DNA of 64,000 bases from Candidatus Poribacteria bacterium (lineage in GTDB: Bacteria; Poribacteria; WGA-4E; WGA-3G). The stretch's first letter is position 1. Each line of letters begins with the position of its first letter. Of this stretch, positions 1,049 to 32,101 are shown in pieces. Position numbers and translations under genes: made by a program. Below the pieces are notes generated by a model that saw only the letters and a program-made list of their open reading frames with translations, made no database searches and had not been told where the DNA came from. The stretch spans positions 736,001 through 800,000 of the forward strand of contig OZ242029.1 in the NCBI GenBank assembly GCA_965205015.1, read 5' to 3'.

Positions 1049-1121
1049 AAGACAATTCTCCAAGAAAAAATGTGCCTAAATTGTCTGAATCAGGATTCTC
1101 AGGATTAAAGGATGACCAAGA

Positions 1122-1940
1122 TCATAGAGCACTTCGAAGCATTTCCACGCTCTGCGGAACGCCGACATGTGCATCGGCTTTCCCCTCGAATTCAATGGAT
1201 ACATATCCCTGAAATCCGGCATCCTTTAGAATGTTGCCTATTTTAGCATAATCTAAATCCAATGTATACCATTCACCACCCCCGTAATAGGTTTTGGCAT
1301 GGACGAGCACCGCCTCATCTGCAATCTGTTCCAGTTTTTGGTATGGATCTGAAAGAAAGTTCCCACAATCCATTGTAACTTTCAACCAGTCTGAGTCGAT
1401 AGCGGAAACAATACGATTGACGCCTTCAGGGGTGCAGGTGAGTCCCCAATGGTTTTCAAGTCCAAGGACAACCCCGTACTTCTCAGCGTCCGGGAGACAG
1501 TTTTCAATAGCTTCGATGACCCACGCAAACGCCTCGTCTTCTGTGTGTCCGGGGAGTGTCGGTTCTTGCCCTTCGGTTTTCATTAATTCATCGAAAGAGG
1601 GAACGGTGCCCCAGCGTCCTGAGTTGAGGCGAATTGCGGGGATACCGAGTTCGTGTGCCAATCGGATACAGTGGACGGTATGATTGATATTTTTTTGTCG
1701 TGTCGCCTCGTCTGCGGAAACGAAGCCTTGATGGATAGAGAGTGCGTAGAGATCGAGTCCATGTATGAAAGCGAGTCTTTTCAGTTTTTGGAGATACGGA
1801 TTGGCTTCCGATGCCATCTGTTGATGTAAGATTTCAACGCCGTCGAGTCCGAGACGTGCGGCTTCTTCAATGACGTGCTCAATTGGTACCCGTTCAGGTT
1901 TGAAATGCCAATAGGAATAAGTGGATACACCGAGTTTCAT
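1122..1940 (-). CDS. sugar phosphate isomerase/epimerase (xylose isomerase-like TIM barrel)
   Basis: GLENHWG, MDCGNF, VHAK and SIEFEG metal-binding motifs; GAGG RBS. Confidence 0.88.
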   Translation of the reverse strand: MKLGVSTYSYWHFKPERVPIEHVIEEAARLGLDGVEILHQQMASEANPYLQKLKRLAFIHGLDLYALSIHQGFVSADEATRQKNINHTVHCIRLAHELGIPAIRLNSGRWGTVPSFDELMKTEGQEPTLPGHTEDEAFAWVIEAIENCLPDAEKYGVVLGLENHWGLTCTPEGVNRIVSAIDSDWLKVTMDCGNFLSDPYQKLEQIADEAVLVHAKTYYGGGEWYTLDLDYAKIGNILKDAGFQGYVSIEFEGKADAHVGVPQSVEMLRSAL

Positions 1941-2036
1941 TTATCACCTCAATCAGAGTTTTTGTGCTCTTTATGATAGCATAACTCAGCATGCAATATC
2001 CACTTTTTTGATGGGTTATCAGCTGTCAGTTGCCAG

Positions 2037-2062
2037 AAGGCGAGGTTTCCTAACCTCGCCTT
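2037..2062. repeat. REP-like palindrome AAGGCGAGGTT-TCCT-AACCTCGCCTT (may also terminate the SelN-like gene)
   Basis: Perfect 11-bp inverted repeat. The same core sequence occurs inverted at 62824-62848. Confidence 0.75.
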
Positions 2063-2077
2063 TTCGGTAGAACACGG

Positions 2078-3748
2078 CTACTGGTTCCTGGATTCCCCCG
2101 CCACTGCTCCTGCCACGAGTTGTTCTAAATCTGCCTCCCTGCCTCTGCGGGAGATCAATTTGTGGTTGGCTTCATAGGCGATCAACTTACCCTCCCTATC
2201 AATAAGCCACCGTGTCGGAATAGAGCGAACGTTATACTGTTGCGCGAGCGGACTCTGTCGTTCCAGACCGCTGTAAATTTGCCGCCAAGAGATGTCATTC
2301 TCCCTAAGGTAATTTCGCAGTTTCGTTTCATCGGTGTCAAGGCTGACCCCGATGATGTCAAATCCTTTGTCTTTATAGGTATCGTAAATCTTCTTCACCC
2401 TCAGCATTTCCCCGACGCAGAAACCGTTCCAGACTGCCCAGAAATCGAGTAAGACGACTTTTCCGCGGTATTGCTGGAGCGAAATCGGATTGCCATCATG
2501 ATCTGTTGTAGAAAAATCAGATGCCGGTTTTCCAAACTCGTCATAGGCCTCGGCGAGCCTACGGGATAGACCGTGCTTTCCAAGTTGCCTCGGCTTTTGT
2601 GCCGCAACTTTCATACCCATAGATGACGTTAGCAATTCTAAATACCGAGGTATCCGCTCACTGCGAGGTAACCGATAATCCGGATGAAACAAATTCTTGC
2701 TGGGCAGATGTTCAATCACTTCCAATTCAGGGGTTAGTGTTAGGATGTCCACAGAATCGGAGTAATGCTGTCGGAGTTTTGTTGCCAAGTCACCCGCTGC
2801 TGCGCCTTTGGCACCCGTCTGCAACTCGGGCAACTCCCTGTGTAGAACCCAGACGTTCACAAAATGCGTGTTGAGCGATTCAATAATTTTCGGTGAGGAG
2901 AGCGGACCCGCTCTCAAAATTTTGCCCGTCCCTCAGCAAGACTCATCGTCGAGGACCCCGAATAGGAGGACCGCATGGATCGGACGATTCGATGCTTTCG
3001 CGAGTTGGACCGCATCTTCAATAGGAGTCCACGCAATTCCAGCGAACTTGTAAAGCGCGTTCTGAAACTTTCTATCGGCTTCTTCCTCCGTGATAGCGGT
3101 TCCCCAATCAATCGACTCCGGTTGCGTCTCCGATAAACTGTGGAGTTCCATACGCGGAACCAACCCTATATCGTGGGTTCCAAAAGCACCCATATCTACA
3201 TTACTGTTGCGACTGGGAAGCGATAGCGTCCACTGACAAATCGTTCCACTGTTGCGATTGATGCGCAAATGTCCAGCAAATTGTGCAGGCCTCAAGTAGG
3301 CACCGATGGAGGCGTTCAGTATGAAGCGCGCATGGATTCGGAAGACAATATCAGCATATTCAGGTGATAGTGCCCGTAAGCAGGCTTTCGCGCCGTTCCC
3401 ACCATATCCGACATCCATTGTTGCGTTGGGGTGAAACTGGCGCAGAAACGGGAGAATCCGATCCGGATCCAGGTCCCAGACATCCCCTACGTTGACCGTT
3501 GACGGTGGAAGAAAAACTTGGAAATCCGATGTATTATAGTCCTTCAACGGCTGCGCAGGTCCGGGCTTGAATAACTCCAACCACTCTTCCCACGTCATGT
3601 CCACCGGTTCTTGCCACTGTGACTTAGTTCGATTAAACTTTTCTTCTGTTGCCCAATGCAAGTTATTCGATGTATTTTCGATCGGATCCCAATGCGCCTG
3701 CACTGGGATATTCGCTGAAGTTCTTAGCACGTTACGAAGGTCTATCAC
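2078..3748 (-). CDS. Selenoprotein N (SELENON)-like protein with Sec (UGA 2933-2935, residue 272), fused to a C-terminal TlpA/AhpC-TSA domain; 556 aa
   Basis: ORFs 2933..3748 and 2078..2917 are in frame and separated only by TGA plus 5 sense codons. Readthrough gives HAVLLFGVLDDESC-U-GTGKILRAGPLSSPKIIESLNTHFVNVW, matching the SELENON motif [22 protein letters not shown] as recalled. Upstream blocks FRIHA, PAQFAGH, NVDM and DIGLVPRMEL also match. Hairpin follows the UGA. GTG start with AGGAG RBS. Confidence 0.85.
2894..2935 (-). promoter_or_regulatory. putative bacterial SECIS element of the SelN-like gene
   Basis: UGA-N17-GAGAGCG-GGUC-CGCUCUC: 7-8 bp perfect stem with a G-initiated apical loop. 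The following CUCA can pair with UGAG. Confidence 0.7.
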
Positions 3749-3793
3749 TATCTTTACTCCTATTGTTAGAACGATTTATGGTAGATTTTAGAA

Positions 3794-3870
3794 TTTGTGG
3801 GCAGGCACGAGACCTGCCCCTACAATGTGATTGGTGTATTTGTGGGCAGGCACAAGACCTGCCCCTACAA
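3794..3870 (-). repeat. two tandem GTAG-type REP elements (GTAG-GGGCAGG-TCTYGTG-CCTGCCC-ACA)
   Basis: 32-bp copies at 3794-3825 and 3839-3870 with one mismatch; a related copy is at 16407-16434. Confidence 0.8.
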
Positions 3871-3909
3871 GATATAGACCTATTTCCATAATTCGCCATA
3901 GTAAAGGTC

Positions 3910-5217
3910 CTATTGATTCTCGGGTCTGTTTTTGAGGGCTTCCACGACGAGATGTTCTAAATCTTCGCCCCTTGCTTTATGCGAAATTAATGTGCCATCC
4001 CTGTCAATAAGCCACGGTGCCGGAATACCACGGATATCGTATTGTCGGGTAAGGGAATCTTCACCCCTTGCGTTATCGAAAATTTGTCGCCATTGGATGT
4101 CATTCTCTTTAATATAGTCCCGCAGTTTCGGTTCCTCATTATCAAGACTGACCCCGATGACGTCAAATCCCTGATCCTTATAGGTGTCGTAGACTCTTTT
4201 GAGATTTGGCATTTCCGCGATGCACGGACCACACCACACCGCCCAAAAATCGAGTAAGACAACCTTTCCACGATAGTCTTGAAGCGAAATTGGATTCCCA
4301 TCAAGGTCTGTCGCAGAAAAATCAGGCACCAATTTTCCCCACAATTCATATTTAGGATCAGCCTTGCGTTCATAAACTTCGGCGAGTTCAATATTGCCTA
4401 ATTTCTCATAAATATAGGCAAGCCTCGCATGGATAGGTTGTGCATCCGGAAGCTGCTGCTCAGCCGCCTTAAAAATCTCAAGCATATCATCATATAATTC
4501 CGCTTCCGCAAGTACCTCAAATACTGTGCGATACCCATCAATGTTTAGGATCATGCCTGACTTGAGACGCTCAATCAGAGCATCGGCGGCTTGTTCATCC
4601 CCGACTCGGTGGATGTAGAGTCCAAGAAGTTCTGCGTAGAGCTCGAAGAAACGCCGATCGTCCGGGTATCGCGCAAGTGTGTCTTCAAAAGCAGTAATCG
4701 CGGCTTCGGGGCTACCGTATATCTCTTCGGGTGTGTACACACCGGAGGACCAAAATATTTTGAAAGCGAAACTCAAGTTCAGACACTCAAACGCTTGATT
4801 CCTATGATGCCGACAACGGACAAGGGGTATAACATCCCCATACACGAAACGTTCCTCACTTTTCATTGCTCGATACCGCGGATGAAATTGGTAGCCGTAA
4901 CTTACGGGCATCTTTGGATCTGCATTGCTGGAAAAGATTGGCTTGCCACCCAACTCATCTGCTGGACACAGCAAAAGGTTTGCATCGGGCAAATATTTCG
5001 GATGAAGTTCTGAGAGCCATTCCGGGAAATCGCCGTGTTCTTTTTTATAGGCTTGAATCGCCTCGCCAATCGCAACCAAATTTTGCGTGCAGATTTCAAT
5101 GTTTTTCTCATGCCGTTCCATAATTAGATCCTCGCTGGGCTTTTCTGTAGGTGTGTCTGCGTTTGCAGAAGTGATTAGTAAACCTATCACCATTGCCACA
5201 GTCAAGATTGCTTTCAT
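3910..5217 (-). CDS. exported TlpA-family thiol-disulfide oxidoreductase with N-terminal pseudopilin/DUF1559-like and TPR-like regions
   Basis: Signal peptide (MKAILTVAMVIGLLITSANA); C-terminal PDFSATDLDG...VLLDFWAVWCGPC...IPAPWLIDRDG. Confidence 0.82.
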   Translation of the reverse strand: MKAILTVAMVIGLLITSANADTPTEKPSEDLIMERHEKNIEICTQNLVAIGEAIQAYKKEHGDFPEWLSELHPKYLPDANLLLCPADELGGKPIFSSNADPKMPVSYGYQFHPRYRAMKSEERFVYGDVIPLVRCRHHRNQAFECLNLSFAFKIFWSSGVYTPEEIYGSPEAAITAFEDTLARYPDDRRFFELYAELLGLYIHRVGDEQAADALIERLKSGMILNIDGYRTVFEVLAEAELYDDMLEIFKAAEQQLPDAQPIHARLAYIYEKLGNIELAEVYERKADPKYELWGKLVPDFSATDLDGNPISLQDYRGKVVLLDFWAVWCGPCIAEMPNLKRVYDTYKDQGFDVIGVSLDNEEPKLRDYIKENDIQWRQIFDNARGEDSLTRQYDIRGIPAPWLIDRDGTLISHKARGEDLEHLVVEALKNRPENQ

Positions 5218-5262
5218 TTCAATATTCTCCTTTTCAGATTTCTCACTGAATTGCCAGATTGG

Positions 5263-7596
5263 CTATTGATTCTCGGTTTTGTCCTTGAGGGCTTCCACCA
5301 CGAGTTGTTCTAACTTCACCCCTCTGGCTTTACGTGAGATTAATGTGCCGTCCCTGGCAATGAGCCACGGTGCTGGGATGGAACGAATATGATGCCGTTG
5401 CGCAAGTGGACTTCTCCATTTTTGTCCGCTGAAGATTTGCCGCCACCGGATGTTATTCTTTTTTAGGTAGTTGCGCAGCCTCACCTCATCAGTGTCAAGA
5501 CTGACACCGATGATATCGAAACCCTGATCCTTATAGGTATTGTAAACCCTTTTCACATTCGGCATTTCGGTTATACAGGGACCACACCAGACTGCCCAGA
5601 AATCGAGTAGCACCACTTTTCCGCGATATTGTTGAAGCGAGATCGGTCTGCCATCAAGGTCAGTTTCTGAAAAATCAGGCACAATTTTTCCGACAAGTTC
5701 CGACATCGGATCCGCCTTTTTCCGATATTTCGCGGCGAGCTCGGAATTACCGAGCACTTCATGAATTCGCGCAAGTTCTTCCAGAACGCGGGAGTCTTTC
5801 GGATACCGTTTCTCAAGATTCTCAAAGACTTTAAGCGCTTCTTCATATTGATTCGCCATTTCAAGCATCCTGCTGAGCATAAAATGTGCCTGAAGGTCGT
5901 CAGGTTTTATAACCGATCTGAAACGGTTAATAAGGTGCTCGGCAGCTTTTTCGCGTCCGACTTCAATGTAGAGACGGGCAAGTGTCATATAGAAATGAAA
6001 GAACTGTTCATTATCGGCTTGTCGCTGCAGTCCTTTTTCCAACGCTGCAATGGTTTCCTCAACGGTTTCATACATCTCTTCTGGTCTATATACACCGGAT
6101 GACCAATATATCTTAAAAGCGAAACTCAAGTTTAGACACTCAAACGCTTGATTCTTATGATGCCGGCAACGGACAAGCGGTAAAACGTCCCCATACATAA
6201 GGCGTTCCTCAGTTTTTGCTACTCGATACGCAGGGTGAAATTGGTAGCCGTAACTCACAGGCATCTTCGGGTCTCTATTAGAAGCAAAAACTGTCCTGCC
6301 GTTCAGTCCATCTGCAGGACAAAGCAAGAGATTCGCATTTGGTAAGTAGTGGGGATAAAGGTCTGAGAGCCATTGCGGAAAATCACCGTGTTCCTTCCGG
6401 TAGGCTTGGAGTGCCTTGCCAATGTCGCGCAGATGCTGTTTGCAGATTTCAACGTTCTCGTCCATCTGTTCCGCCTTCGTCGTTCGGTCAGAAGGCTCCT
6501 CGCTTGATGTTGATTGGGATTTGGAGGCTGCCTGAATTTGTTGGGACAGTGCGTCCTTTGGATCAACCGCCTGTGCCAAACGCATCGCGCCCATCGGAAC
6601 AGCAAAGCAGATGAGGACGAGCAGTCCTATTCCCATGGCAACTTTTGTCACCGGACGCCGATTCAGATTTTCGGCGAGAACGGTTCGGAGTCGTCTTTCA
6701 ATCCTTGAGGAACGCGCGATTGCCACAGCCGCAAGCGAAGTTGCCTTGGTAATTTTCACATTGCGTGTAATATCAAGCAGATGTTGCGCGTAGTCGGTGG
6801 ATCGACACCCAGCATTTAGGACATGGTCATCGCAGGCTTGCTCTGCTTCTATGCGCATCCAACGCGCCAGCAACCATACAAGTGGATTGAACCAATAGAT
6901 CGCACACGTTACCTGTGCAACCATCTGCATCGTCCAATCCCACCGTTTGATATGTGCCAATTCGTGTAGGAGCACAGTACGGAGCCGCTCGGTTTGCCAA
7001 TGATTTGCATCAACTGGTAGCAAAATCACAGGACGTAAGAAACCCCACACCATCGGGACTGTAATCCTATCGCTGAGCCGGATATTGACGCGTCGATTTG
7101 AATTGGATTGTAACTGTTCGACAGCACGGCTAAAATTGCGACTCCGAGCAGAGATATGCCAAATGGCACCGATGCCGACAATCAAACGGATAAACAGAAA
7201 CAGTCCAGCACCTGTCCAGACGATTGCTATCCAGTCTGTCCAATGTCGTGTCGTAAAGGGGGCACTCTGATCGGGCACAAGGTCGGGTTGCGGCGGTGTC
7301 GATGCGATTGGTATGGACGACACCGACTTTGTTGACAATTGGATCGGTGCACTTGAAACGGGTACTTCAGGTAGGATACCGAGTTCCCACTTCGGAAGCA
7401 CAAGAGAAAGCAGCGGGATAGTGAGGCATCCGACGATTGCCATACTCCAGGCGAAACCGCGCACCGCCGCCGACTTGCGACGGAGGCAGAACGCGAATAC
7501 ACCCGCAACGGCGAAAATCACGAAACTTTTCATCGTGGTGTCAACGAGAAATTTCAGCAATGGGTCTGCGTAGAGCGTCTCAATAAATCGCATCAT
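5263..7596 (-). CDS. BlaR1/MecR1-type M56 metallopeptidase fused to TPR and TlpA (WCGPC) domains
   Basis: N-terminal TM helices, PMVWGFLRPVILLP, HELAHIKRWD (HExxH), WFNPLVW and EQACDDHVL. The C-terminal half is paralogous to 3910..5217. Overlaps the blaI-like stop. Confidence 0.9.
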   Translation of the reverse strand: MMRFIETLYADPLLKFLVDTTMKSFVIFAVAGVFAFCLRRKSAAVRGFAWSMAIVGCLTIPLLSLVLPKWELGILPEVPVSSAPIQLSTKSVSSIPIASTPPQPDLVPDQSAPFTTRHWTDWIAIVWTGAGLFLFIRLIVGIGAIWHISARSRNFSRAVEQLQSNSNRRVNIRLSDRITVPMVWGFLRPVILLPVDANHWQTERLRTVLLHELAHIKRWDWTMQMVAQVTCAIYWFNPLVWLLARWMRIEAEQACDDHVLNAGCRSTDYAQHLLDITRNVKITKATSLAAVAIARSSRIERRLRTVLAENLNRRPVTKVAMGIGLLVLICFAVPMGAMRLAQAVDPKDALSQQIQAASKSQSTSSEEPSDRTTKAEQMDENVEICKQHLRDIGKALQAYRKEHGDFPQWLSDLYPHYLPNANLLLCPADGLNGRTVFASNRDPKMPVSYGYQFHPAYRVAKTEERLMYGDVLPLVRCRHHKNQAFECLNLSFAFKIYWSSGVYRPEEMYETVEETIAALEKGLQRQADNEQFFHFYMTLARLYIEVGREKAAEHLINRFRSVIKPDDLQAHFMLSRMLEMANQYEEALKVFENLEKRYPKDSRVLEELARIHEVLGNSELAAKYRKKADPMSELVGKIVPDFSETDLDGRPISLQQYRGKVVLLDFWAVWCGPCITEMPNVKRVYNTYKDQGFDIIGVSLDTDEVRLRNYLKKNNIRWRQIFSGQKWRSPLAQRHHIRSIPAPWLIARDGTLISRKARGVKLEQLVVEALKDKTENQ

Positions 7597-7982
7597 GATG
7601 AAGTGTCTCCCTTTTTCGCTTGCTCAATGAGTTGGCTTAAACGGTCAAGTTCCTCATCCGAGAGATCCACCTCGGAGACCAGTGCAATGACCGTTTTCTC
7701 AATAGACTTATCAAAAAACGTCTGAAAAATCTGTTTGAGTGCGGAACGTCCCGCCAGATGCCGTGGTTGCGTCGGGCGGTAGATGTAGCGTCTGCCATCT
7801 TTTTCATGGGTGAGATACCCCTTCTCCTCCAAGATTCCCAACAGTGCCCGAACTGTAGAGTAAGTTGGCGGATCCGGGAGGTCCTCAAGGACATCGACAA
7901 CAGAAGCGCAACCGCGCTGATAGACGATATCCATGATTTGTCGTTCCCTCCGACTCAGTTTGAGGGTACCGTAGTCTTCCAC
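7593..7982 (-). CDS. BlaI/MecI/CopY family transcriptional repressor
   Basis: LSRRERQIMDIVY...TYSTVRALLGILEEKGYL...DGRRYIY...LSDEELDRL; directly upstream of the M56 gene. Confidence 0.93.
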   Translation of the reverse strand: MEDYGTLKLSRRERQIMDIVYQRGCASVVDVLEDLPDPPTYSTVRALLGILEEKGYLTHEKDGRRYIYRPTQPRHLAGRSALKQIFQTFFDKSIEKTVIALVSEVDLSDEELDRLSQLIEQAKKGDTSS

Positions 7983-8012
7983 TTTTTCACCTCTTTTGGT
8001 AATATGAATTCA

Positions 8013-9401
8013 TCAGATTTCAATACGCACAAACGCGAGATACGCACCCGCCAACACAACGACAACAAACAATGTTAACAGCAGTAACTCTGTTGTAACG
8101 GTATTGAAATCCTTACCGATGTTGAGTGTGTCTTCAAATTTGGGAACCGCTTCTGGGCTGACAGGCTTTTTGGACATCCCCTCGCGAACGCCCATGATAT
8201 GGGGGCTCTCCGGATCGCCTCTCTCCATATCAACGACGAATTCTCGGTATTCACGGGCGTAACGCTGAACATTCTCAGTAAATTGCTGGTGCCGATCCAG
8301 ACCTGTTCCAGCGAACGCCTCAAGCAGATGCTGGAGGAGTGCCGCGGGTGAGACGCTGGTTATGGCACGCGCACGTTGAACTTGGGTAATCTTAAAGGTT
8401 AAGTACTCCCCAGCCAAGCGTTCGCCGCTTACTGCTATTTTGGTGTGCCACTCACCTCTTATCCTTAGCATTTTTTCGTCATCTGACTGATACCAAGCGT
8501 GTCGCCAAGTTTTCTTAAGTCTCCTGTAACTTTGGCCGTATCGGTCTGTATATTCATGAGATGCCATAGATGATGAAAAGCCGCTCGCAAGTGCGGCGAG
8601 TGTGCTCGGCATAAAAGCGACAAAAGTGACCCACGTCAACAGAAGTATCACAAGACTCACGGCACTCCGTTGCACACGCGCTGAGACTAACAGCCCTAAC
8701 GCCAGAAACAGACACGTGTACAAAAGTGCGATAAAGAGAATGATGCCTAAGCGTCCCCACGCTTCAGTATTCAGGTGAACCTCACTTGCGGAGGAAATCA
8801 TTAGGAGGTTCACTAACATAGCCAGCAGAAAAGGAATAGTCGTACTGATCAACGCCCCCAGAAACTTACCGATCAGCACAGTATGTCGTGGGATAGCATT
8901 TGCCAACATCAATCGGAGCGTGCCGTGCTCGCGTTCGCTGGAGATAGCATCAAACGTAAATAAGAGCGCAATGAGACTCAAGATATAACCGATGATAAAG
9001 GTCCAATCGATTTGGGAAACGTCGGGTCCAACATTTTTCATATTTATGTTGGCATCTGGATAGCTCAGTTTCCAGAAAATGTCGCTACCATAAGGGGTGT
9101 CAACCCTATCGGGTAAAAGGGTCTCTCCACCCGCTGCGCAGAAATGGAGCGGCGACGGTTTTTTGTAAAGCACTCCGGGTCCCTCGTGTGCCAATGTATA
9201 GAGACTGTCGTCGGCGCGAGACGTTAATTGGTTCATGGATTCAGTGACAGCGTCGTGATACTTCTGGACCCGTTTCGGATGCTCTCGGATATGTCTAACG
9301 GCGTTGGTTACCATCAGTGCCAGCAGCAACACGGTCGTCAACGCAAATCGGAGGCTATTCAAATTATTATAGAGTTCACGTTTCGTAATATGCCACATCA
9401 T
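8013..9401 (-). CDS. ABC-2-type transporter permease subunit (type B, copy 2)
   Basis: WHITKRELY start, FDAISSEREHGTLRLML motif, ~6 TM helices with two large extracytoplasmic loops. Confidence 0.8.
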   Translation of the reverse strand: MMWHITKRELYNNLNSLRFALTTVLLLALMVTNAVRHIREHPKRVQKYHDAVTESMNQLTSRADDSLYTLAHEGPGVLYKKPSPLHFCAAGGETLLPDRVDTPYGSDIFWKLSYPDANINMKNVGPDVSQIDWTFIIGYILSLIALLFTFDAISSEREHGTLRLMLANAIPRHTVLIGKFLGALISTTIPFLLAMLVNLLMISSASEVHLNTEAWGRLGIILFIALLYTCLFLALGLLVSARVQRSAVSLVILLLTWVTFVAFMPSTLAALASGFSSSMASHEYTDRYGQSYRRLKKTWRHAWYQSDDEKMLRIRGEWHTKIAVSGERLAGEYLTFKITQVQRARAITSVSPAALLQHLLEAFAGTGLDRHQQFTENVQRYAREYREFVVDMERGDPESPHIMGVREGMSKKPVSPEAVPKFEDTLNIGKDFNTVTTELLLLTLFVVVVLAGAYLAFVRIEI

Positions 9402-9403
9402 AT

Positions 9404-10915
9404 CTACACTTCACTTTTGATAAAAACCAGAAAGATCACTATAAAGAGAAGGACATTCATCATAAGCAGCAGGAACAAGTCTGGCACTGTTCGTTTTGCA
9501 TTGATGCTGATATCGCTTCTCTGAAATGAGAACTGCGGGAGCGTGTCCCAATCGACGGCACCTTGATCGGAAGAAAACCACTGTCGGGACGCAAATATCT
9601 TTTCATCATAAAAGTAATTGACGATCGCTTGTCGGTAGCGTTGCGCCGCTGTGAAAAAATCCTGGGTGCCATTGAGGTCGGTGCCTGCCCACGCTTCGGT
9701 TGCGGCATCATACAAACCCGCCGGTGAGAACTTCAACAACATTCGTCCTCTGTTTGCCGGTTGGACGTAGATCTTCTCGAATGCTGGCTTTCGGATAAAC
9801 GATGTTCGCTCTGCGGTGTTGACAGTCAACATTCCGAGGTAGTGGTGATAATTCTGGGCGTGTGGCACGTAAGGTTCCGATTTCTCGTCAATCGTTTCAA
9901 GGTCGCCCGCAGCATGGTGGATGTAGTAATATAATAATCTTGATGGCTGGTCTCTTATTATCCCATAAAAATCAAATCCCAAATCTTCTCCTGGGAGAGC
10001 ATCGTTGAGGAGAAACTGCTTCCGCTTTCTCTCAAGTTCCTCCCACATCTGTTTAACCTGATGGTAAGCGGCGGCTTCCGTATCCGTTTGTGGGGCAGTA
10101 TCAACTGCAGTGAGAATCATATTCGGGTAGACGAGTACTAAGAACCCCCAAACGAACATCGAGAGGATAAGCGCAGTACTGGTTCGGCGTGTGATTGCAG
10201 AAATGAGCATGCCAGTGAGGTAGAACAGCGATAGATAGACGACGGACGTAAGAACAATCCCACCGATACGCAGAAAATCATCGGTATTCAGGGAGATCAT
10301 AGCGGATGTCGTCAGCAAAATGAGCATCAGGAGCAGACTTATCAACAACGGCACGAGCAAACAGACCATCGCACCGATATATTTGGCGAACAGGATGGAC
10401 CCACGTCCCACGGGATGGGATAGCACTAAGCGGAGGGTGCCGTGTTCGTATTCTCCAGCGATAGCATCGTAGGCGAAAATAAGTGCCAGTAGGCTAAGAA
10501 CCCCTTGAAAAATAAGGACAATATCAATTGAAGTGAGGATGTTGAAAAATGGATTGTTCGCCTCGTACTTGTCGGCATCCCAAATTGTCGGCGTAAAAGT
10601 ATGGGAAATCGCAATTTTGTTCCCCAGTCGCTTATCTAAACCTGTGTTGAAAATGCTCAACGGGTTCGGCGGACGGTCAACGATCATCTTTCCCCACACG
10701 CCTAACATTCCATCTGAATAGGTTTTGTTGATCTCTCGAAGTTCCTGCCGGTGGGTTTTGACGGCGGTATTATAATCCGCCAACCGCAGTTCATAGTCTT
10801 TGATGAGCACAACGGTATTCGCGACCACGAGCAGCAGCATAATCGCAACAGCTGCCGCAAATCGGAACGTCATGAGATTGTCGAGGAGTTCCCGCCGAAT
10901 GAGTGTTAGAAACAT
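9404..10915 (-). CDS. ABC-2-type transporter permease subunit (type A, copy 2)
   Basis: LIRRELLDNL start, YDAIAGEYEHGTLRLVL motif, multiple TM helices. Confidence 0.8.
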   Translation of the reverse strand: MFLTLIRRELLDNLMTFRFAAAVAIMLLLVVANTVVLIKDYELRLADYNTAVKTHRQELREINKTYSDGMLGVWGKMIVDRPPNPLSIFNTGLDKRLGNKIAISHTFTPTIWDADKYEANNPFFNILTSIDIVLIFQGVLSLLALIFAYDAIAGEYEHGTLRLVLSHPVGRGSILFAKYIGAMVCLLVPLLISLLLMLILLTTSAMISLNTDDFLRIGGIVLTSVVYLSLFYLTGMLISAITRRTSTALILSMFVWGFLVLVYPNMILTAVDTAPQTDTEAAAYHQVKQMWEELERKRKQFLLNDALPGEDLGFDFYGIIRDQPSRLLYYYIHHAAGDLETIDEKSEPYVPHAQNYHHYLGMLTVNTAERTSFIRKPAFEKIYVQPANRGRMLLKFSPAGLYDAATEAWAGTDLNGTQDFFTAAQRYRQAIVNYFYDEKIFASRQWFSSDQGAVDWDTLPQFSFQRSDISINAKRTVPDLFLLLMMNVLLFIVIFLVFIKSEV

Positions 10916-11015
10916 CGCAGTATCACCAAATCCCGTTGTTTATCGTCTGATATGTGTCTGTCTCCCTTTAAGTGTTCACAGGAAACGTGTTGAACGGGCG
11001 TTAAATATAGATAAT

Positions 11016-11076
11016 ATGCTAATATTTTAGCATTTAGAAAAAATGATGTCAAGAAAAAATGCTAAAAATTTAGCAT
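11016..11076 (-). promoter_or_regulatory. sigma70 promoter (TTGACA-17-TAAAAT, extended TG) flanked by two ATGCTAA-N4-TTAGCAT operators
   Basis: -35 at 11047-11052 and -10 at 11024-11029 on the minus strand. Palindromes with perfect 7-bp arms at 11016-11033 (covering the -10) and 11059-11076. Confidence 0.85.
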
Positions 11077-11204
11077 AAATTGATGAAGCACACGATTGAC
11101 CCATCTATAAGTGCCACGGTGAAACTTTCTGCTGATGCATAGGGACCAATACATTCTCTGTCCGTCTCTTGAATTCTCACCTATTGAAACGGCAAAAAGA
11201 CTGT

Positions 11205-12635
11205 CTAAACATCAACACGAAGGAACGAAAGAAACGCACTTGCGAACAATACTGCAAAAAATAGGAGTAATAACAGGATGTCTGTAGTTGCGGCGTTATA
11301 GGCACCGCTGAAACTGATATGATCTTCAAATTTCGGGATTGATTCAAAGCGCACGGGCTTTTGTGAGGTACCCTCTTCGGGACCGATCGCGTGGGGACTC
11401 TCTGGATCCGCACGATCGGTTTCAACGAGAAACGACATGAATGCATCGGCGTATCGGCGCACTTGCTTCAAGAATTGAACGTGCCGTGTGAAACCGGTCC
11501 CGGCAACGGATTCTATCGCATACTGTACACTTGATGCTGGAGATATACGGGTGATGGATCTCGCGAGTCGAATCTGAGCAATTTGAGCGTCTAAGTGCTC
11601 CTCGTTCAATCTCCCGTTGTCTCTTGCATCCTCGGTGAGGTATTTCGACCACAACAGTGTTTCCTCCGTTGCTGGAATCTCTCGCGAGGGTACTTTGCTC
11701 CCAAGTTCGTCGTACTCCTGATAAAAATTATTGGCAAACTGTTGCCGACGGGCGGCGAGTTCGTTACGGGTCATTGTCGGCTGTAAGCCGCTGGTAAGCG
11801 CACCGGTTGTAGAGGGCAGCAGGACGACCCAAACAACCCAAATTAGTAAGAGAATCATGAGACTCGATGACGAATTACTTACGCGAGAGGATATGAGCAG
11901 CCCCAGTCCAAGGAAGATTGACACGTAAACAAAAGCGATGAAGACAATGACGCCCAATCGTCCGCACTCGCTTGGTCCGAGTGGAATACTTCCCGACGTG
12001 TAAAGTAGAAAAAGGTTAATGAATGCGGCAATTAAAAAAGGGATACTGATAGTTATCAATGCTGCAAGAAACTTGCTTACCAATACAGTGCCGCGTGAAA
12101 CGCTATTGGAGAGGGTCAAACGCAGGGTACCTCGTTCGCGGTCCGAAGATATCGCGTCGAAAGTGAATAGGATAGCAATCAAACTCAGCACGATAGAGAC
12201 GATAGCATTCCAATCAACATTTGTATAATCGGGCATAATATTCCATAGGTTTGGATTGGATTGCGGGTATTCCATTCGCCATATCGCACTGATTGAAAAA
12301 CGGCTTGAGCTCATGAGCAGACCTCTGCCAACGCCATCAGCGGATTCGGGTATAAATGTTTCACCACCGTTCGCACAAAAGGAGAGTGGAGACGGTTTTT
12401 TGTAGAGAGTACCGGGTCCTCCCATGAGCAGATAATACAGACTGTCTGCAGTGGATCTCATCTTATCTAAAGACGCTGAGACCTTTTTTTGATATTCTGT
12501 CGATTGCGCCGTGTATTCGCCAAGATACCCGATTGCATTGACGAGCATCAGAGCAATAAGCAATACCGTTGTAAAGGCAAATCGTAGGCTATTCAGATGG
12601 TCATAAAGTTCACGTTTTACAAGGTGCCAAATCAT
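11205..12635 (-). CDS. ABC-2-type transporter permease subunit (type B, copy 1)
   Basis: Start moved to MIWHLVKRELY by alignment with the paralog 8013..9401; FDAISSDRERGTLRLTL motif. Confidence 0.8.
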   Translation of the reverse strand: MIWHLVKRELYDHLNSLRFAFTTVLLIALMLVNAIGYLGEYTAQSTEYQKKVSASLDKMRSTADSLYYLLMGGPGTLYKKPSPLSFCANGGETFIPESADGVGRGLLMSSSRFSISAIWRMEYPQSNPNLWNIMPDYTNVDWNAIVSIVLSLIAILFTFDAISSDRERGTLRLTLSNSVSRGTVLVSKFLAALITISIPFLIAAFINLFLLYTSGSIPLGPSECGRLGVIVFIAFVYVSIFLGLGLLISSRVSNSSSSLMILLLIWVVWVVLLPSTTGALTSGLQPTMTRNELAARRQQFANNFYQEYDELGSKVPSREIPATEETLLWSKYLTEDARDNGRLNEEHLDAQIAQIRLARSITRISPASSVQYAIESVAGTGFTRHVQFLKQVRRYADAFMSFLVETDRADPESPHAIGPEEGTSQKPVRFESIPKFEDHISFSGAYNAATTDILLLLLFFAVLFASAFLSFLRVDV

Positions 12636-12640
12636 TTTAT

Positions 12641-12719
12641 TAGTTGTCGGTCGTCGACTATCGGTTGTCAGCAAGAATGGCTGTCGGTTTCTTTGCCGAC
12701 TGCTGATTGCTGACTGCTA
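12641..12719. repeat. heptamer-based intergenic repeat (GTTGTCG/CTGACTG-type runs in inverted arrangement)
   Basis: tagttgtcggtcgtcgactatcggttgtcagc ... gccgactgctgattgctgactgct. Similar elements at 43949-44054, 44307-44411 and 57881-57966. Confidence 0.6.
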
Positions 12720-12721
12720 AT

Positions 12722-14233
12722 TTACACTTCCTGCCGCACGAATATTAAAAATGCCATCATAAACAGTACAACGTTGATGAGCAGTAAGCAGGCAATATCG
12801 CCGCTGGCGTGCTGCATACCATTCCATATATCGCTCCGACGATAAGAAAACCGTGGTAAATCGCTCCAATCGACTTCTCCTTGATCAGCGGCAAACCATT
12901 TCCGAGAAGAAAAAGCCTTCTTATCATAGAAATAATCAATAATCGTTTGCCGATACCGCTGGACTGTCGTGATAAAATCCTCAATACCGTGGAAATCCGT
13001 TCCTGCCCACGCCTCGGTTGCGAAATCATACATCGCCGCCGGTGAGAAACGCATCAGGTTTTTTGCCACATTTGCTTTGCGAACGTAGATCTGATTTAAA
13101 GCTGCCTGTCGAACCTGCCATGTCCTTTCTGCTGCGCGAATGCGTCGCGGCTCTGCGAATTGAAAGTAAGCTTTGACATGAGGCATCAGGGGTTCTGCCT
13201 CTGGCTTGATACGAATACTGCGAATTTCTGCCTTAGAATACCTGAGCGTCATCGGATCTGAAATATGAGGCGCCCCCCAACTTCCTGAATAAAGTATATT
13301 GGTGTTCAAGTCTTCCCCTTCAATTTCATCGTTCCTTAAGAAATCCATCCGTTCTCTTTCAAAACTTTCCCAGATCTGCTCAATTTCACCATAAGAGGAC
13401 TCCAATTGAGAAGGGGTCTGCCAAAACCGATTGACTGTAAATACGGTGAGGCTTGGATAGATGAGGACCAGGGTGCTCCATATCACCATTGACACCATCA
13501 GGGCAGTCGCGGTTCGGCGTGTGATTGCCGAGATTAACAATCCTATGAGATAAAAAGCGGAGAGATAGATGATTGAGGTAAGTAAAATACCGCCAATCCG
13601 AAGCCAATCATCTCCCGTCAGCAAAATCGACCCAGATACAGAAAATAAGATGAGTGCGAGTAGCAAACTCATGACGACAGGAAGCGTCAGACACGCCAGC
13701 GCACTGATGTACTTTGCCAGGAGAACAACGGAGTGACTGACAGAGTTTGTCAGCGTTAAGCGGAGCGTGCCTGCTTCCCGTTCCCCAGCGATCGCATCGT
13801 GGGCGAAAAGCAGTGCCAGTAGACTGAGAATTACCTGAAAAACCAAAACCAAATCGACGCTCGAAAACAGGTTGAGGAAAGGATTATCCGCACTGTGTGA
13901 TCGGGTATCCCACAGGGTTGGGACAAAGGTATGCCCGATAGTGATAGAGTTGCCGAGCCGTCGATCTAAACCCGCATTGAAAATGCTCAGCGGGTTAGGG
14001 GGTCGGTCTACGCGGATTGCGCCTTCCACCTCCGAATAGGTACTTGTTCTTCTTAAAAACCTCTGATGGTGTTCCTTCACCGCGGTATCATAACTCGTCA
14101 GACGGCGTTCGTAATCGGCAATCAGGACAACGGTATTCGCAACAACCAACGACAGTGTGACGATCATCGCAACGAGGAACCGAAAGGTCATAAGGTTGGC
14201 GAGCAATTCTCGCCGAACGAGAATCAGAAACAT
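12722..14233 (-). CDS. ABC-2-type transporter permease subunit (type A, copy 1)
   Basis: LVRRELLANLMTFRF, HDAIAGEREAGTLRLTL; same length (503 aa) as the paralog 9404..10915. Confidence 0.8.
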   Translation of the reverse strand: MFLILVRRELLANLMTFRFLVAMIVTLSLVVANTVVLIADYERRLTSYDTAVKEHHQRFLRRTSTYSEVEGAIRVDRPPNPLSIFNAGLDRRLGNSITIGHTFVPTLWDTRSHSADNPFLNLFSSVDLVLVFQVILSLLALLFAHDAIAGEREAGTLRLTLTNSVSHSVVLLAKYISALACLTLPVVMSLLLALILFSVSGSILLTGDDWLRIGGILLTSIIYLSAFYLIGLLISAITRRTATALMVSMVIWSTLVLIYPSLTVFTVNRFWQTPSQLESSYGEIEQIWESFERERMDFLRNDEIEGEDLNTNILYSGSWGAPHISDPMTLRYSKAEIRSIRIKPEAEPLMPHVKAYFQFAEPRRIRAAERTWQVRQAALNQIYVRKANVAKNLMRFSPAAMYDFATEAWAGTDFHGIEDFITTVQRYRQTIIDYFYDKKAFSSRKWFAADQGEVDWSDLPRFSYRRSDIWNGMQHASGDIACLLLINVVLFMMAFLIFVRQEV

Positions 14234-16323
14234 GGTATCATCACCGAATCCGACAAGAGTGCTTCAATCATCCAAATTAAGGGTTGACCGCCTATGATAT
14301 CCAAACCTATAAAACTGTATTGCCAATTCCCTGCTTTATCAATCAAGATAAAAGCGGGGATTCTTTTAATCTGATACGCCTTCTTTACTTGCCGATGCGG
14401 GTCAAGTAGAACGGGCCAGGGGGGTTGATACTGTTCTAAAAACTCCCGAACTTTTTGAGGGGCTTCACCGTCACTGATACCCCAGATAACGACATCATCA
14501 ACGTTGCGGAATCGCTCATAGACGAATTCAACTTCCGGAATCACCATGTTGCCCCCATACAACGAAACCCCAACATCAAGCAACACAATCTTACCAGACA
14601 TCGCCGAGAGTGTGTAGGTCTCGCCTTCCAACGTTTCCAAACGAAAATCCGTCGCTTTTTTCTTCAGTCTGTTGGTGATAAGTTTCTCGCGGATTTTTTC
14701 GAGATCCGTCCCTTCTCGAATCCGGTATTCTGCTTCGGTGTCTTTAAGGAATGCCTCAAGCGTATCGGTAGGTTCCCGGCGTTTTATTTCATGATAGAGG
14801 CGTTCCAGGCCCCTCCGACTTTCCGCCCGAGGCATAGGCACAAAGTGTGGGTCGGCGAAGTCATAGTAATGTCTTACCTTCTCAACGCGAGGCATAGGCG
14901 CAAAATATGCATCGGCGTAGTAACGCCTCGCTTCCTCAGAGTCTCCCACTCCTTCCGCTGACCGGCCCAACATATAGAAGTAATTCATGGTATCCTCATT
15001 AAACCTTGCCCAGAGGGACTCCAAATAATCCGGTGCGTTCGCGACAAGTCCATCATGCGCTTCTCTCCATCGTTCCTGCCGGATATAGATTTCACAGCGT
15101 AAACGCGAGATGTTCTTGCGCTCTTCTTCTACAGACCCTTTGTTGTTTTCGACGAGCCATTTCTGTTCCTCTATCTCCCCTAACCTGATGTCAGCACGCG
15201 CTAAAACTTCCCACGCTTTGTCCAATCGGTTGTTAAACTTCAGCCGATATTTAACCGATTCGGTATAAGCCCAACCGAACCACTGCTGTGTCTCCCGGCA
15301 ACAAGAGAGATGTGCCTCCAAGCAGCCGTCAATCAGTTCATCAAGGTCGTCATCATTCGCCAGAGAGCGATCCGCTTCTGCTAATCGTAGTAGTTGTTGA
15401 TACGCTGACCAATGCCAGGACAATATGGGGGTATCTGAGACAGTAAACGCATTAATGACACGTTGGTAATAGTACCACTGTTGAGATGCGTCTTCGCTCC
15501 GTTCAGCTAATCCTAACAATGCTGTCAAATAATTTTCAGTTTTGGGGTATTGCAACATCTTGTCAAACAGACTGTTTGGAACATTCTTTGAGCGACCCGG
15601 AAGCTCCATATATCCCCAATAGACAGTGTTTAATAATTCCGGAGTTTCTGGATGTTCCCTCAGCAGCATTTCGATTTCAGGGAGAATTTTCTTCTTTGCG
15701 TCCTCCGCTGAAAAGGTTTCGACGATTCGTCTCCATTGAGAATGATACGTTTCCAAATCCACAATCAATGCCTCCTGATCCGCCTGTAACCGCTTTCGCG
15801 CCCGATGGAGGCGACTCACGATCGTGTTCACCGGTATATCTAAGAATTCGCCCATCTCCATTGTTGTCATTTCACCGAGATAGTAGAGCCGCATCACCTC
15901 GCGTTCACCTTTCGGCAGTTTTGCCAGAAGATTTTCGACGATTTCATAACGACGCTCCCTCGCTTCTGATTCTTGCTGGTCGGATACATAACGCTCATAC
16001 GTTAAGTTATCTATCTCTTTCACAGACGCGTCACTCAGCGATTGCATCGTAGATTTTTGCTTTCGTATCCAAGAAATGCAAAGCCGATTTGCAATGACAT
16101 AGACCCACCCAGCAAATTGACTGGGGTCCTTAAGCGTTGAGAGTTTGTTGTATGCTTGGAGAAAAGTGTCTTGTGTAATCTCTTCAGCATAGTGAAAATC
16201 TCCGATCTTTCGCCACACAAGGGCATGAACGCTGCTTTGATACTTCTGAACCAAAGTGTTGAATGCCTCGTCGTCGCCCGACAAAACTTTGCGAATCAAC
16301 TGAACATCGTCTTCTCTTTCCAC
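14224..16323 (-). CDS. ECF sigma-70 factor fused to TPR-like repeats and a C-terminal redoxin (TlpA-like) domain lacking CxxC
   Basis: GTG start at 16323 with AGGAG RBS. Region 2 (AEEITQDTFLQAY...FAGWVYVIANR) and region 4 (LPKGEREVMRLYY...IPVNTIVSRLHRARKRL). C-terminal TDFRLETLEG...IPAFILIDKAG. Confidence 0.85.
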   Translation of the reverse strand: MEREDDVQLIRKVLSGDDEAFNTLVQKYQSSVHALVWRKIGDFHYAEEITQDTFLQAYNKLSTLKDPSQFAGWVYVIANRLCISWIRKQKSTMQSLSDASVKEIDNLTYERYVSDQQESEARERRYEIVENLLAKLPKGEREVMRLYYLGEMTTMEMGEFLDIPVNTIVSRLHRARKRLQADQEALIVDLETYHSQWRRIVETFSAEDAKKKILPEIEMLLREHPETPELLNTVYWGYMELPGRSKNVPNSLFDKMLQYPKTENYLTALLGLAERSEDASQQWYYYQRVINAFTVSDTPILSWHWSAYQQLLRLAEADRSLANDDDLDELIDGCLEAHLSCCRETQQWFGWAYTESVKYRLKFNNRLDKAWEVLARADIRLGEIEEQKWLVENNKGSVEEERKNISRLRCEIYIRQERWREAHDGLVANAPDYLESLWARFNEDTMNYFYMLGRSAEGVGDSEEARRYYADAYFAPMPRVEKVRHYYDFADPHFVPMPRAESRRGLERLYHEIKRREPTDTLEAFLKDTEAEYRIREGTDLEKIREKLITNRLKKKATDFRLETLEGETYTLSAMSGKIVLLDVGVSLYGGNMVIPEVEFVYERFRNVDDVVIWGISDGEAPQKVREFLEQYQPPWPVLLDPHRQVKKAYQIKRIPAFILIDKAGNWQYSFIGLDIIGGQPLIWMIEALLSDSVMIPCF

Positions 16324-16406
16324 GCGGCTTTCTCCTAATAAACAGATTGGGGTGTGTTGACATTCGCCAAAAAGTATACGCAAATGCTAAACTTTGTGAA
16401 ATTATA

Positions 16407-16434
16407 GTAGGGGTAGGTCTTGTGCCTACCCACA
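16407..16434 (+). repeat. GTAG-type REP element
   Basis: GTAG-GGGTAGG-TCTTGTG-CCTACCC-ACA; compensatory C-G to T-A pair change relative to the copies at 3794-3870. Confidence 0.75.
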
Positions 16435-16642
16435 CATTACCGAAACCGTCAATACGTTTTCGGGCTTTACTCTAAGCAATGCGACACGGTTCATATCATC
16501 TTCATAAGGTTAGTTGTTAAAGACGCGATTTTGGGCAGGAAACATTGCATAATTTAAAAAAAGTCTGGATTTTTTAGGAATTGTGGGAAGATGAGGGGTT
16601 GTGATCAGATCGTTGGAAAGAGAGTTTGGTTGCAATATGTAA

Positions 16643-16681
16643 GGGCTGTTCAGTTACCCTTGGCGGATAACTCAACAGCCC
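16643..16681 (-). terminator. stem-loop downstream of the DUF4159 gene, possible terminator
   Basis: GGGCTGTT-C-AGTTA...TAACT-C-AACAGCCC imperfect inverted repeat; no clear U-tract. Confidence 0.4.
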
Positions 16682-16724
16682 AAACAAAGTGCGGGGTTAA
16701 AAACCACGCTCAGATATAAAATCT

Positions 16725-31963: not shown

Positions 31964-31992
31964 TTTATTTATCTCTGTACTGTAGTGCATTT

Positions 31993-32056
31993 GCCCCGCT
32001 GGGGCTTACCTTGGGGTTGACAGCATTTCTATACACATTTCGCCTCGCTGGGGCTA
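31993..32056 (+). repeat. GCCYCGCTGGGGCT short palindromic repeats
   Basis: Copies at 31993 and 32042; related sequence near 45857. Confidence 0.55.
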
Positions 32057-32101
32057 AAACATAGGGTTTCTGACCTATAAATATATCACCTTGTATCCGT
32101 T

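Follow-up and report, generated by a model that had tools for sequence, protein, structure and literature searches.

A stretch of 64,000 nucleotides (nt) from a Candidatus Poribacteria bacterium (assembly GCA_965205015.1, contig OZ242029.1, positions 736,001 to 800,000; the window, below, is this whole stretch) carries at positions 2078-16323 a cluster of nine co-oriented open reading frames (ORFs) on the minus strand. Its central genes code for a BlaI-type repressor, a BlaR1-type membrane protease, a soluble thioredoxin-fold protein and a homologue of selenoprotein N (SelenoN, SelN). The cluster probably, on balance, houses a self-contained circuit of proteolytic derepression of the BlaI/BlaR1 type, in which the periplasmic head of BlaR1 would be composed of a Cys-rich domain (X), tetratricopeptide repeats (TPR) and a TlpA domain, and in which the signal would be a client protein or a ligand. 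The features on which this reading rests are the following.

11016..11076, minus strand: candidate BlaI operator-promoter module, two 18-bp palindromes ATGCTAA-N4-TTAGCAT around TTGACA-17-TAAAAT
9404..10915, minus strand: permease A2 of the ABC-2 type (ABC2_membrane_2, 1.1e-30; hydropathy)
8013..9401, minus strand: permease B2 of the ABC-2 type (Pfam, 1.7e-30), 30 bp from blaI
7593..7982, minus strand: BlaI/MecI-family winged-helix repressor of 129 residues (Penicillinase_R, PF03965, 3.2e-30 over 113 of 115 positions)
5263..7596, minus strand: BlaR1-like M56 zinc protease with a head of Cys-rich X domain, TPR and TlpA (WCGPC), from Pfam, hydropathy and alignment
3910..5217, minus strand: secreted soluble paralogue of the sensor head, with signal peptide (by hydropathy), X, TPR and TlpA (WCGPC), from Pfam and alignment
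2078..3748, minus strand: SelN homologue with a beta-rich domain, a thioredoxin (Trx)-like domain (SCUG) and TlpA (WNGFC), from HMMER, AlphaFold2 (AF2) and alignments

In the proposed working of the circuit, BlaI dimers would occupy the two palindromes that bracket the sigma-70 promoter. A periplasmic event at the X-TPR-TlpA head would activate the cytoplasmic M56 zinc protease of BlaR1, which would remove BlaI, and the freed promoter would then drive an operon of permease A2, permease B2, blaI, blaR1, the soluble X-TPR-TlpA protein and SelN-TlpA. Oxidised or damaged envelope proteins, on which the free reductases would act as well, are a candidate signal, and the induced effectors would be paralogues of the sensor head. 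We infer that BlaI is cleaved, what the signal is and what each product does biochemically, the permeases included.

Repressor, operator and regulon

The BlaI protein aligns with solved MecI chains over residues 4-120 (E 1e-6), and its gene is overlapped by blaR1 by 4 nt. The strongest argument for a private regulon, which would consist of exactly these genes, is the distribution of the candidate operator. Its two palindromes, at 11059-11076 and 11016-11033, are perfect and lie 43 bp apart; the second shares bases with the -10 hexamer of the promoter at 11052-11024. With its TG extension, this promoter agrees at 11 of 12 positions and ranks first among 23 sigma-70-like sites in positions 1000-17000, so that the promoter placed at 11016-11076 by the initial annotation is real as a motif. 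When up to two mismatches are allowed, the palindrome has only these two matches in the 64 kb, against a chance expectation of 0.19.

The comparison was extended to relatives in two ways. Five related chromosomes (G001-G005) served as stand-ins for the genome of the window, and orthologous loci were collected by tblastn with the window proteins, which yielded 34 loci where an orthologue of the last gene reaches at least 65% identity. The dyad pair is present in 22 of the 26 orthologous loci that bear BlaI and in none of the eight BlaI-less ones; in the other four BlaI-bearing loci the relevant upstream DNA lies beyond the fetched stretch or the contig. The pair usually stands directly upstream of blaI, and in several loci also upstream of a permease pair or of a gene for an extracytoplasmic function (ECF) sigma factor. 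In G004, four successive cassettes (ECF-permA-permB twice, permA-permB, and blaI-blaR1 with what follows) each begin with a dyad pair. Across the five whole genomes, 19 of 22 dyad sites with at most one mismatch fall inside this locus, and the motif read backwards as a control gave 0, 0, 1, 1 and 0 sites. The putative binding of BlaI to the palindromes is thus deduced from the motif and its distribution. A BlaI/BlaR1 regulon is well supported because the dyads co-occur with BlaI and are confined to the locus, and because M56 is mostly single-copy: four of the five related genomes have one match to the family above the Pfam cut-off, and the fifth has two.

The sensor and its thioredoxin-fold head

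The BlaR1 protein combines a Peptidase_M56 domain (PF05569, 6.5e-35) bearing the motif HELAH with TPR and an AhpC-TSA domain (2.2e-19), and matches BlaR1 chains solved by cryo-electron microscopy (8EXS) across the HExxH region (E 1e-9). Hydropathy reveals four hydrophobic transmembrane (TM) segments, with the TPR and TlpA part following the fourth; these segments place the C-terminal head in a predicted extracytoplasmic position. Pfam finds no transpeptidase or beta-lactamase domain in BlaR1, the C-terminus being TPR and AhpC-TSA/Redoxin, and the ESM Atlas offered no usable match for the protein. The initial annotation, which described a BlaI/BlaR1-type unit with a TPR and thioredoxin-fold head in place of the penicillin-binding domain, is thus borne out by Pfam, solved structures and the TM count. 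HExxH is retained in 22 of 22 BlaR1 orthologues (HELAH in 20, HETAH in 2), and in all 22 full-length orthologues of the locus M56 is fused to the X-TPR-TlpA module. Of 150 genomes sampled from the phylum, at least 35 hold a near full-length fusion of BlaR1 with the module, a lower bound, as scoring was limited to seven candidates per genome and the list to 150 of 887 matches.

The soluble protein is 63% identical to the BlaR1 head. The redoxin fold resembles ResA and DsbE structures in Foldseek (TM score of about 0.8), and the best ResA/TlpA-type chains match in sequence at E values of 1e-17 or below. The TlpA domains of BlaR1, the soluble copy and SelN-TlpA are close paralogues (57-63% identity by alignment), and the redoxin domain of the ECF protein is a distant relative of the other three (30% identity, E 3e-9). 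Pfam and NCBIfam assign a thioredoxin fold of the redoxin type to all four proteins. The initial annotation had counted nine co-oriented genes, four of them with a C-terminal TlpA/redoxin domain; the ORF list and Pfam agree, with the proviso that the ECF copy is only distantly related. Within the window, WCGPC is found in BlaR1 and the soluble copy only, the copy fused to SelN has WNGFC, and the ECF protein has no Cys at the site.

The module has 11-17 matches in each of the five genomes. Elsewhere it is also fused to other ECF sigma factors, either via one TM segment (L081 with WSPPA, L084 with DPPC) or directly (L082 with RDFG). Because the module, with degenerate active sites, is fused to several ECF sigma factors, it can be read as a signalling head that is used repeatedly. 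Module matches in three further genomes (G123, G070 and G145) lie inside open frames of 1217-1259 residues, and in G123 an M56 match lies in a nearby 1242-residue frame on the same contig (C114), likely the same frame as the module. Such frames point to BlaR1 variants in which the head is longer or doubled. In one soluble TlpA copy of another locus (L002:8539-9837), a TGA occurs at residue 262. It was rejected as a selenocysteine (Sec) codon: the TPR position is non-conserved, and the TGA is probably a nonsense change or a sequencing error.

Is the CxxC dithiol the switch?

The active-site motifs of every module in the window and the orthologous loci were tabulated. WCxxC is kept in 43 of 43 free modules, meaning those outside intact BlaR1, SelN or ECF frames. 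Among the BlaR1 sensors, CxxC is kept in 15 of 23, including that of the window, and one Cys is gone in the other eight (WYGPC in 4, WHGPC in 2, WWGPC in 1 and WCGPS in 1). The domains fused to SelN have their first Cys replaced by N, S or H in 31 of 32 cases and retain the second in 32 of 32; the most divergent SelN-TlpA orthologue (L030) has CGFC. The resulting S/N/H-x-x-C motif we take to resemble the T-x-x-C of peroxiredoxins.

These counts bear on an alternative close to what the initial annotation proposed, that the system senses thiol or redox state through its CxxC. According to this alternative the dithiol of the BlaR1 head is itself the switch, through oxidation, alkylation or metal binding, and directly reports periplasmic disulfide, oxidant or electrophile stress. 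The intact motif in the window's sensor and in 14 others speaks for it, as does a fold that is the one of the TlpA/ResA reductases, and a covalent change of the sensor nucleophile would parallel the acylation of the classical BlaR1 serine. Yet the eight sensors that are short of one Cys nonetheless keep HExxH, BlaI and operator, and the same module on ECF sigma factors has no Cys or one. Judged by the tabulated motifs, purifying selection keeps the dithiol in the free copies only. Sensing by oxidation of the sensor's own dithiol appears unlikely, because a third of the natural sensors have lost a CxxC Cys and the free copies none, and this part of the initial annotation is not upheld. The same pattern of loss in the sensors and retention in the free copies therefore favours, as the more likely signal, a client protein or ligand that binds at the X/TPR/Trx head. 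That a one-Cys head traps its partner via a mixed disulfide is speculation.

Conservation of the locus and points that weigh against the circuit

The cluster recurs in the 34 species-level relatives between the same two flanking genes. Downstream lies a xylose-isomerase-like gene (28 of 34 loci), and upstream a gene of the DUF4159 family, present in every locus whose sequence extends far enough. The synteny to which the initial annotation pointed as a check was found, with BlaI in 26 and full-length BlaR1 in 22 of the 34 loci. Copy numbers vary among loci, from 0-3 soluble modules upstream and 0-2 downstream to 1-3 permease pairs and 0-2 ECF genes. SelN-TlpA alone is retained in all 34 loci and forms their conserved core. 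Identity in the flanking genes is 90-99% (medians 93-95%), and the cassette genes have medians of 66-89%; this faster divergence of the cassette than of its flanks is itself notable.

Several observations weigh against the circuit as proposed. Since the orthologous loci come from close relatives, synteny by itself is weak evidence of function and could be inheritance. One locus (L003) has nothing between the DUF4159 gene and SelN-TlpA. Only remnants of BlaR1 are left in L019, L021 and L028, and BlaR1 is in pieces in L009, L010 and L015; BlaI is missing in L025, L030 and L031, while L023 and L027 are too short to tell. Because the regulator is lost or broken in several species where SelN-TlpA stays, the selenoprotein is, as judged from gene content, not dependent on BlaI/BlaR1. 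At the position aligned with the MecI cleavage site, which we take to be Asn101-Phe102, BlaI has Leu-Val, which is not decisive on cleavage. The known operators of BlaI, MecI and CopY have a TACA/TGTA motif, unlike ATGCTAA-N4-TTAGCAT. The X domain (residues 22-160) has a predicted local distance difference test score (pLDDT) below 50 in the AF2 model of the soluble copy, where the TPR and Trx parts are confident, and among the best 120 of 480 matches it has no relatives beyond X-TPR-redoxin proteins of the Poribacteria type. No gene for an ATPase of the ATP-binding cassette (ABC) type stands beside the permeases in the window or in the inspected loci.

A second alternative, about as improbable as the dithiol switch, is that there is no integrated system. 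The locus would be a hot spot of tandem-duplicated Poribacteria paralogue families, in which BlaI/BlaR1 regulates only itself, or in which M56 is a membrane anchor or quality-control protease for a tethered reductase. Such a reading would accommodate the variable numbers of soluble modules, permease pairs and ECF genes, the loss of the regulator in several species with retention of SelN-TlpA, and the faster evolution of the cassette genes. It also draws on the abundance of the families within a genome: 11-17 module matches, 8-13 or more SelN-like genes and ECF fusions by the dozen. Against it, the dyad-promoter module accompanies the cassettes and stays confined to the locus, M56 is single-copy in four of five genomes and module-fused in all 22 full-length orthologues, and gene order is conserved together with the short or overlapping junctions. 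The idea that the genes might be independent members of paralogue expansions, raised in the initial annotation as grounds for refutation, thus holds for the module, the SelN domain and the ECF fusions, which are large genome-wide expansions, and does not hold for M56.

The last alternative, a unit for homeostasis of copper or another metal with BlaI as CopY, the TlpA modules as TlpA/Sco-type reductases and the permeases of the NosY type, is very unlikely: it takes up the best NCBIfam match of the repressor (CopY/TcrY, 1.2e-17), a weak SCO1-SenC match on the soluble copy (Pfam, 0.0098) and the tie of TlpA to copper-centre assembly in rhizobia, but the repressor scores 64.4 bits under a family cut-off of 121.95, CopY repressors have a C-terminal cysteine cluster where this BlaI has a lone Cys at residue 25, the 64-kb window yielded neither a copper ATPase or chaperone nor a multicopper oxidase, and the M56 partner points to proteolytic, not metal-dependent, control. 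CopY-type metal sensing was for these reasons (the score, the missing cluster and the M56 partner) rejected as the principal interpretation. The BlaI/BlaR1-type circuit with a client- or ligand-type signal is the reading retained below.

A bacterial homologue of selenoprotein N

The last gene of the cluster codes for a protein with a TlpA-like C-terminus, of which the first 400 residues match no Pfam or NCBIfam model. Two features inside its coding region are central to its interpretation.

2933..2935, minus strand: in-frame TGA predicted to encode selenocysteine, in the context DDESC-U-GTG (motif SCUG)
2898..2915, minus strand: hairpin GAGAGCG-GGUC-CGCUCUC resembling a selenocysteine insertion sequence (SECIS), beginning 18 nt after the UGA (21st base from its U)

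A HMMER profile built from seven Poribacteria sequences and run against 1.84 billion representatives matched 850 clusters (at 50% identity) at E values of 0.001 or below, 528 at 1e-10 and 204 at 1e-30. The animal matches include an EF-hand protein of the wombat (a SelenoN orthologue, 3.2e-53), a jellyfish protein (1.1e-48) and two UniRef entries that bear the name Selenoprotein N, from the hagfish (4.7e-45) and a monkey (1.1e-37). In the ESM Atlas, where a natural SelN homologue with SCG in place of SCU was the query, the nearest cluster is 'Selenoprotein N' (0.94, 210 of 256 features). By these sequence comparisons, the last gene is a genuine bacterial homologue of selenoprotein N. Rows for Planctomycetota returned with the same ESM Atlas query are a lead only.

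The codon was followed in a scan of species-representative genomes with an alignment of the SelN domain, which confirmed 310 loci; the best 80 of the 310 were kept, all from Poribacteria. Of 78 informative loci, 77 have TGA at the homologous position, L043 and L044 being incomplete. The exception is a paralogue (L051) with TGG (Trp) at the Sec position, in which the sequence of the downstream hairpin is still present. In 66 distinct sequences 93.5% of the cells of the hairpin are paired, and two pairs are changed on both sides, GC to AU in 18 sequences and GC to CG in four. The covariation score is above all 500 shuffles and all slid controls, with the qualification that the sequences are related and coding, which inflates such measures. 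RNAalifold alone returned only the four outer pairs, and the seven-pair helix was counted explicitly afterwards. The GGUC loop presumably resembles that of the fdhF element of Escherichia coli. SelA is present in all five related genomes (about 1e-157). Codon retention, hairpin covariation and SelA together predict that the TGA is decoded as selenocysteine.

The AF2 model of SelN-TlpA is confident (pLDDT 84, predicted TM score 0.75). Its beta-rich domain is followed by a Trx-like domain, in which SCUG opens a helix, and a disordered linker leads on to the TlpA domain. A Foldseek search with this model returned TlpA/ResA-type chains only and was uninformative on the SelenoN part. Hydropathy finds no signal peptide or TM segment in SelN-TlpA, and the position of the start codon is common to all 34 orthologues; no EF-hand is matched by Pfam. 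SelN-TlpA is probably a cytoplasmic protein, because no export signal or TM segment precedes the domain and the start is conserved. Export prevails in the rest of the family: among the 149 further representatives in the list, 133 have an initial M, and the N-terminus is hydrophobic in 86 of these 133. In 113 of the 149 the sequence stops at the Cys before the UGA, and gene callers therefore cut these members of the family short.

Each of the five related genomes has at least 8-13 SelenoN-like genes, each with a single in-frame TGA, and tandem arrays occur, such as five in a row at G003:C2:5656135-5667821. The ORF P0004 joins the half of one SelenoN-like gene that follows the UGA, a beta-rich C-terminal region and a second SelenoN-like domain ending in ...DDESC; either a single frame holds two Sec domains, or tandem genes are tightly packed here. 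In another arrangement an ECF sigma factor, one TM segment and a SelenoN domain share a frame (P0006-P0022, P0003 and L083, at G001:C1:5219500-5222200). Most of these copies end in ...DDESC, cut at the Sec codon, one is a Cys form (SCCG, 690 residues), and an ECF-type promoter motif lies just upstream of the gene. Such a protein would be a sigma factor that is tethered to the membrane and has a selenoprotein as its head.

The ECF sigma factor and permease cassette

The upstream part of the cluster comprises the following features.

16520..16550, minus strand: conserved ECF-type promoter-like motif ATGCAATGTTTCC...AAATCGCGTCTT, upstream of the ECF gene
14224..16323, minus strand: ECF sigma factor with a helical region of about 350 residues and a C-terminal Trx-like domain (Pfam, NCBIfam, hydropathy, alignments)
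12722..14233, minus strand: permease A1 of the ABC-2 type (ABC2_membrane_2, 1.5e-24) with six predicted TM segments and a DUF3526 loop
11205..12674, minus strand: permease B1 of the ABC-2 type (ABC2_membrane_2, 1.4e-31; hydropathy)

As transcribed, the order of the genes is ECF sigma-Trx, permeases A1 and B1, a gap of 290 bp, permeases A2 and B2, BlaI, BlaR1, the soluble TPR-TlpA protein and SelN-TlpA. The ECF protein carries Sigma70_r2 (7.7e-13), r4_2 (3e-12) and AhpC-TSA (1.5e-13) domains in Pfam and matches the sigma70-ECF family of NCBIfam (2.9e-27). Its ORF is open up to a TTG at 16383, and the start is taken as GTG 16323 because the N-termini of its homologues (MEREDD) correspond to that codon. 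For permease B1, comparison with B2 makes ATG 12635 the likely true start.

The Trx-like domain of the ECF protein is free of cysteine, with SLYGGN at the place of CxxC, and none of the five ECF proteins of the locus has an active-site Cys. The protein is predicted to be cytoplasmic because hydropathy finds no TM segment in it. These features, together with the lack of an export signal in SelN-TlpA, call for a change in the single sensing-and-response system first proposed for the cluster. The ECF stop codon overlaps the start of permease A1 by 10 nt, and Pfam finds no anti-sigma gene next to the ECF gene, the genes that follow being permeases.

The promoter-like motif is kept in four of four aligned upstream regions and also precedes paralogous ECF-fusion genes in the five related genomes, the backwards control giving 0. 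In the window the dyads stand ahead of the second permease pair only, and the ECF-A1-B1 cassette is without them; in other genomes this cassette does bear dyads. Because it has its own ECF-type promoter motif and no dyads, the cassette in the window need not belong to the BlaI regulon. The initial annotation had the system derepress its permeases, the soluble copy and the selenoprotein: the last two do lie downstream in the same unit, but the ECF-permease cassette would have to be set apart. The ECF sigma-Trx gene and its permease pair can be described as a separate, repeatable cassette whose predicted promoter is of the ECF type, the BlaI type or both, depending on the genome. In G001-G005 the ECF sigma domains, of which there are dozens per genome, start open frames of about 650-1040 residues, and it appears that these genomes generally favour long ECF fusions in one piece.

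Comparison with known systems

With the BlaR1/BlaI and MecR1/MecI systems of Staphylococcus and Bacillus, the present unit shares a repressor gene that overlaps the gene of a four-TM HExxH M56 protease, a head, here predicted to be extracytoplasmic, homologous to proteins encoded alongside, and paired dyads (here candidates) that overlap the promoter. The classical BlaR1 sensor is likewise related to the enzymes that it induces. The unit differs in its head, which is X, TPR and TlpA rather than penicillin-binding and which in one third of cases is without the presumed catalytic Cys, and in its operator sequence. Its genes are all co-oriented in one unit instead of divergent, and the cargo is reductases, permeases and a selenoprotein, not beta-lactamase or PBP2a.

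The redoxin fold is that of TlpA, ResA and CcmG (DsbE), and the free copy shares their WCxxC and signal peptide; TPR beside a reductase recalls the CcmI-type partners in cytochrome c maturation, with a weak TPR_CcmH_CycH match here. Unlike TlpA, ResA and CcmG, the module is a single chain with a Cys-rich X domain and TPR, occurs in many copies per genome, and is attached to a protease, sigma factors and SelenoN. The Pfam annotation of the window contains no cytochrome maturation gene and no CcdA/DsbD gene near the cluster.

With eukaryotic SELENON (SEPN1), SelN-TlpA shares homology in the beta-rich and Trx-like domains and the predicted Sec in SCUG. It differs in lacking EF-hand, TM anchor and signal peptide, in having a hairpin of the bacterial SECIS type inside the coding region, in its C-terminal fusion to a one-Cys TlpA domain and in the number of its paralogues per genome.

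The ECF protein shares with sigma factors of the ECF41 and ECF42 groups a sigma2-sigma4 core, a long extension and the absence of an adjacent anti-sigma gene; it differs in the cysteine-free thioredoxin fold at the end of its extension and in the translational coupling of its gene to a pair of ABC-2 permeases. Sigma factors of the ECF type that carry C-terminal extensions form a recognised class, in which ECF42 has tetratricopeptide repeats, according to the main text of PMC7826278; the terms 'redoxin' and 'TPR' occur nowhere in that main text.

Other features of the cluster and the window

The following elements lie at or near the end of the transcription unit.

3793..3870, minus strand: hairpin resembling repetitive extragenic palindromic (REP) elements, TTGTAGGGGCAGGTCTTGTGCCTGCCCACAAAT, in two copies inserted between the soluble TlpA gene and SelN-TlpA
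2039..2060, minus strand: terminator-like hairpin GGCGAGGTT-AGGA-AACCTCGCC, just 3' of the SelN-TlpA stop codon, with a weak T tract, missed by the consensus scan

The proposed limits of the operon follow the short spacers between genes and the hairpin after the last gene. The spacer between the soluble TlpA gene and SelN-TlpA is about 42 nt in orthologues, in contrast to that of the window with its two REP-like copies. The repeats at 3793-3870 have the form GGGCAGG-tcttgtg-CCTGCCC, and a related GGGTAGG-cacaaga-CCTACCC is found at about 16405-16435.

Rfam at gathering thresholds gave zero matches in the window, hence no SECIS family match, and a tRNA scan of the window found none. At 30317-35113 of the window, an AAA_21/AAA_15 ATPase (with an AbiEii-like Pfam name) adjoins a protein of 1003 residues without a Pfam match, and a DNA methylase lies at 38887-40032; the region 30317-40032 may be a defence island unrelated to the cluster. 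The source belongs to the Candidatus Poribacteria, here a sponge symbiont, and every named homologue likewise comes from Candidatus Poribacteria.

Implications

Signalling by BlaR1/BlaI is a textbook case of regulated proteolysis, yet to our knowledge it is known almost only as an antibiotic sensor, and the machinery described here carries a different, reductase-like head. The clean predicted operator, confined to one locus, makes the circuit directly testable in a heterologous host, and natural sensors with and without the catalytic Cys provide a ready-made experiment on redox chemistry versus binding. A full-text search, outside which most subscription journals lie, found no literature on bacterial SelenoN or such Poribacteria selenoproteins and none on fusions of BlaR1 or ECF sigma factors to thioredoxin folds; the accessible text of PMC13326102 and PMC13188914 does not mention SelenoN.

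The biochemical function of human selenoprotein N is poorly understood, and clear bacterial relatives of SelenoN with a predicted Sec bear on the annotation of selenoproteins and on the origin of SELENON. A wider reading, tentative and rather to be doubted at present, is that Poribacteria possess an extracytoplasmic signalling network built on thioredoxin-fold and SelenoN-type heads. BlaR1 would have been rewired to a head that derives from a reductase, is often catalytically dead, reports on stress of envelope clients or thiols and induces free reductases, permeases and SelenoN. Within these genomes, SelenoN domains with Sec, together with the same reductase module, would serve as the outer heads of membrane-tethered ECF sigma factors. 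If this were true, bacterial SelenoN would constitute a large, almost unannotated selenoprotein family, and it would also be a simple microbial model of what the human myopathy gene SELENON does.

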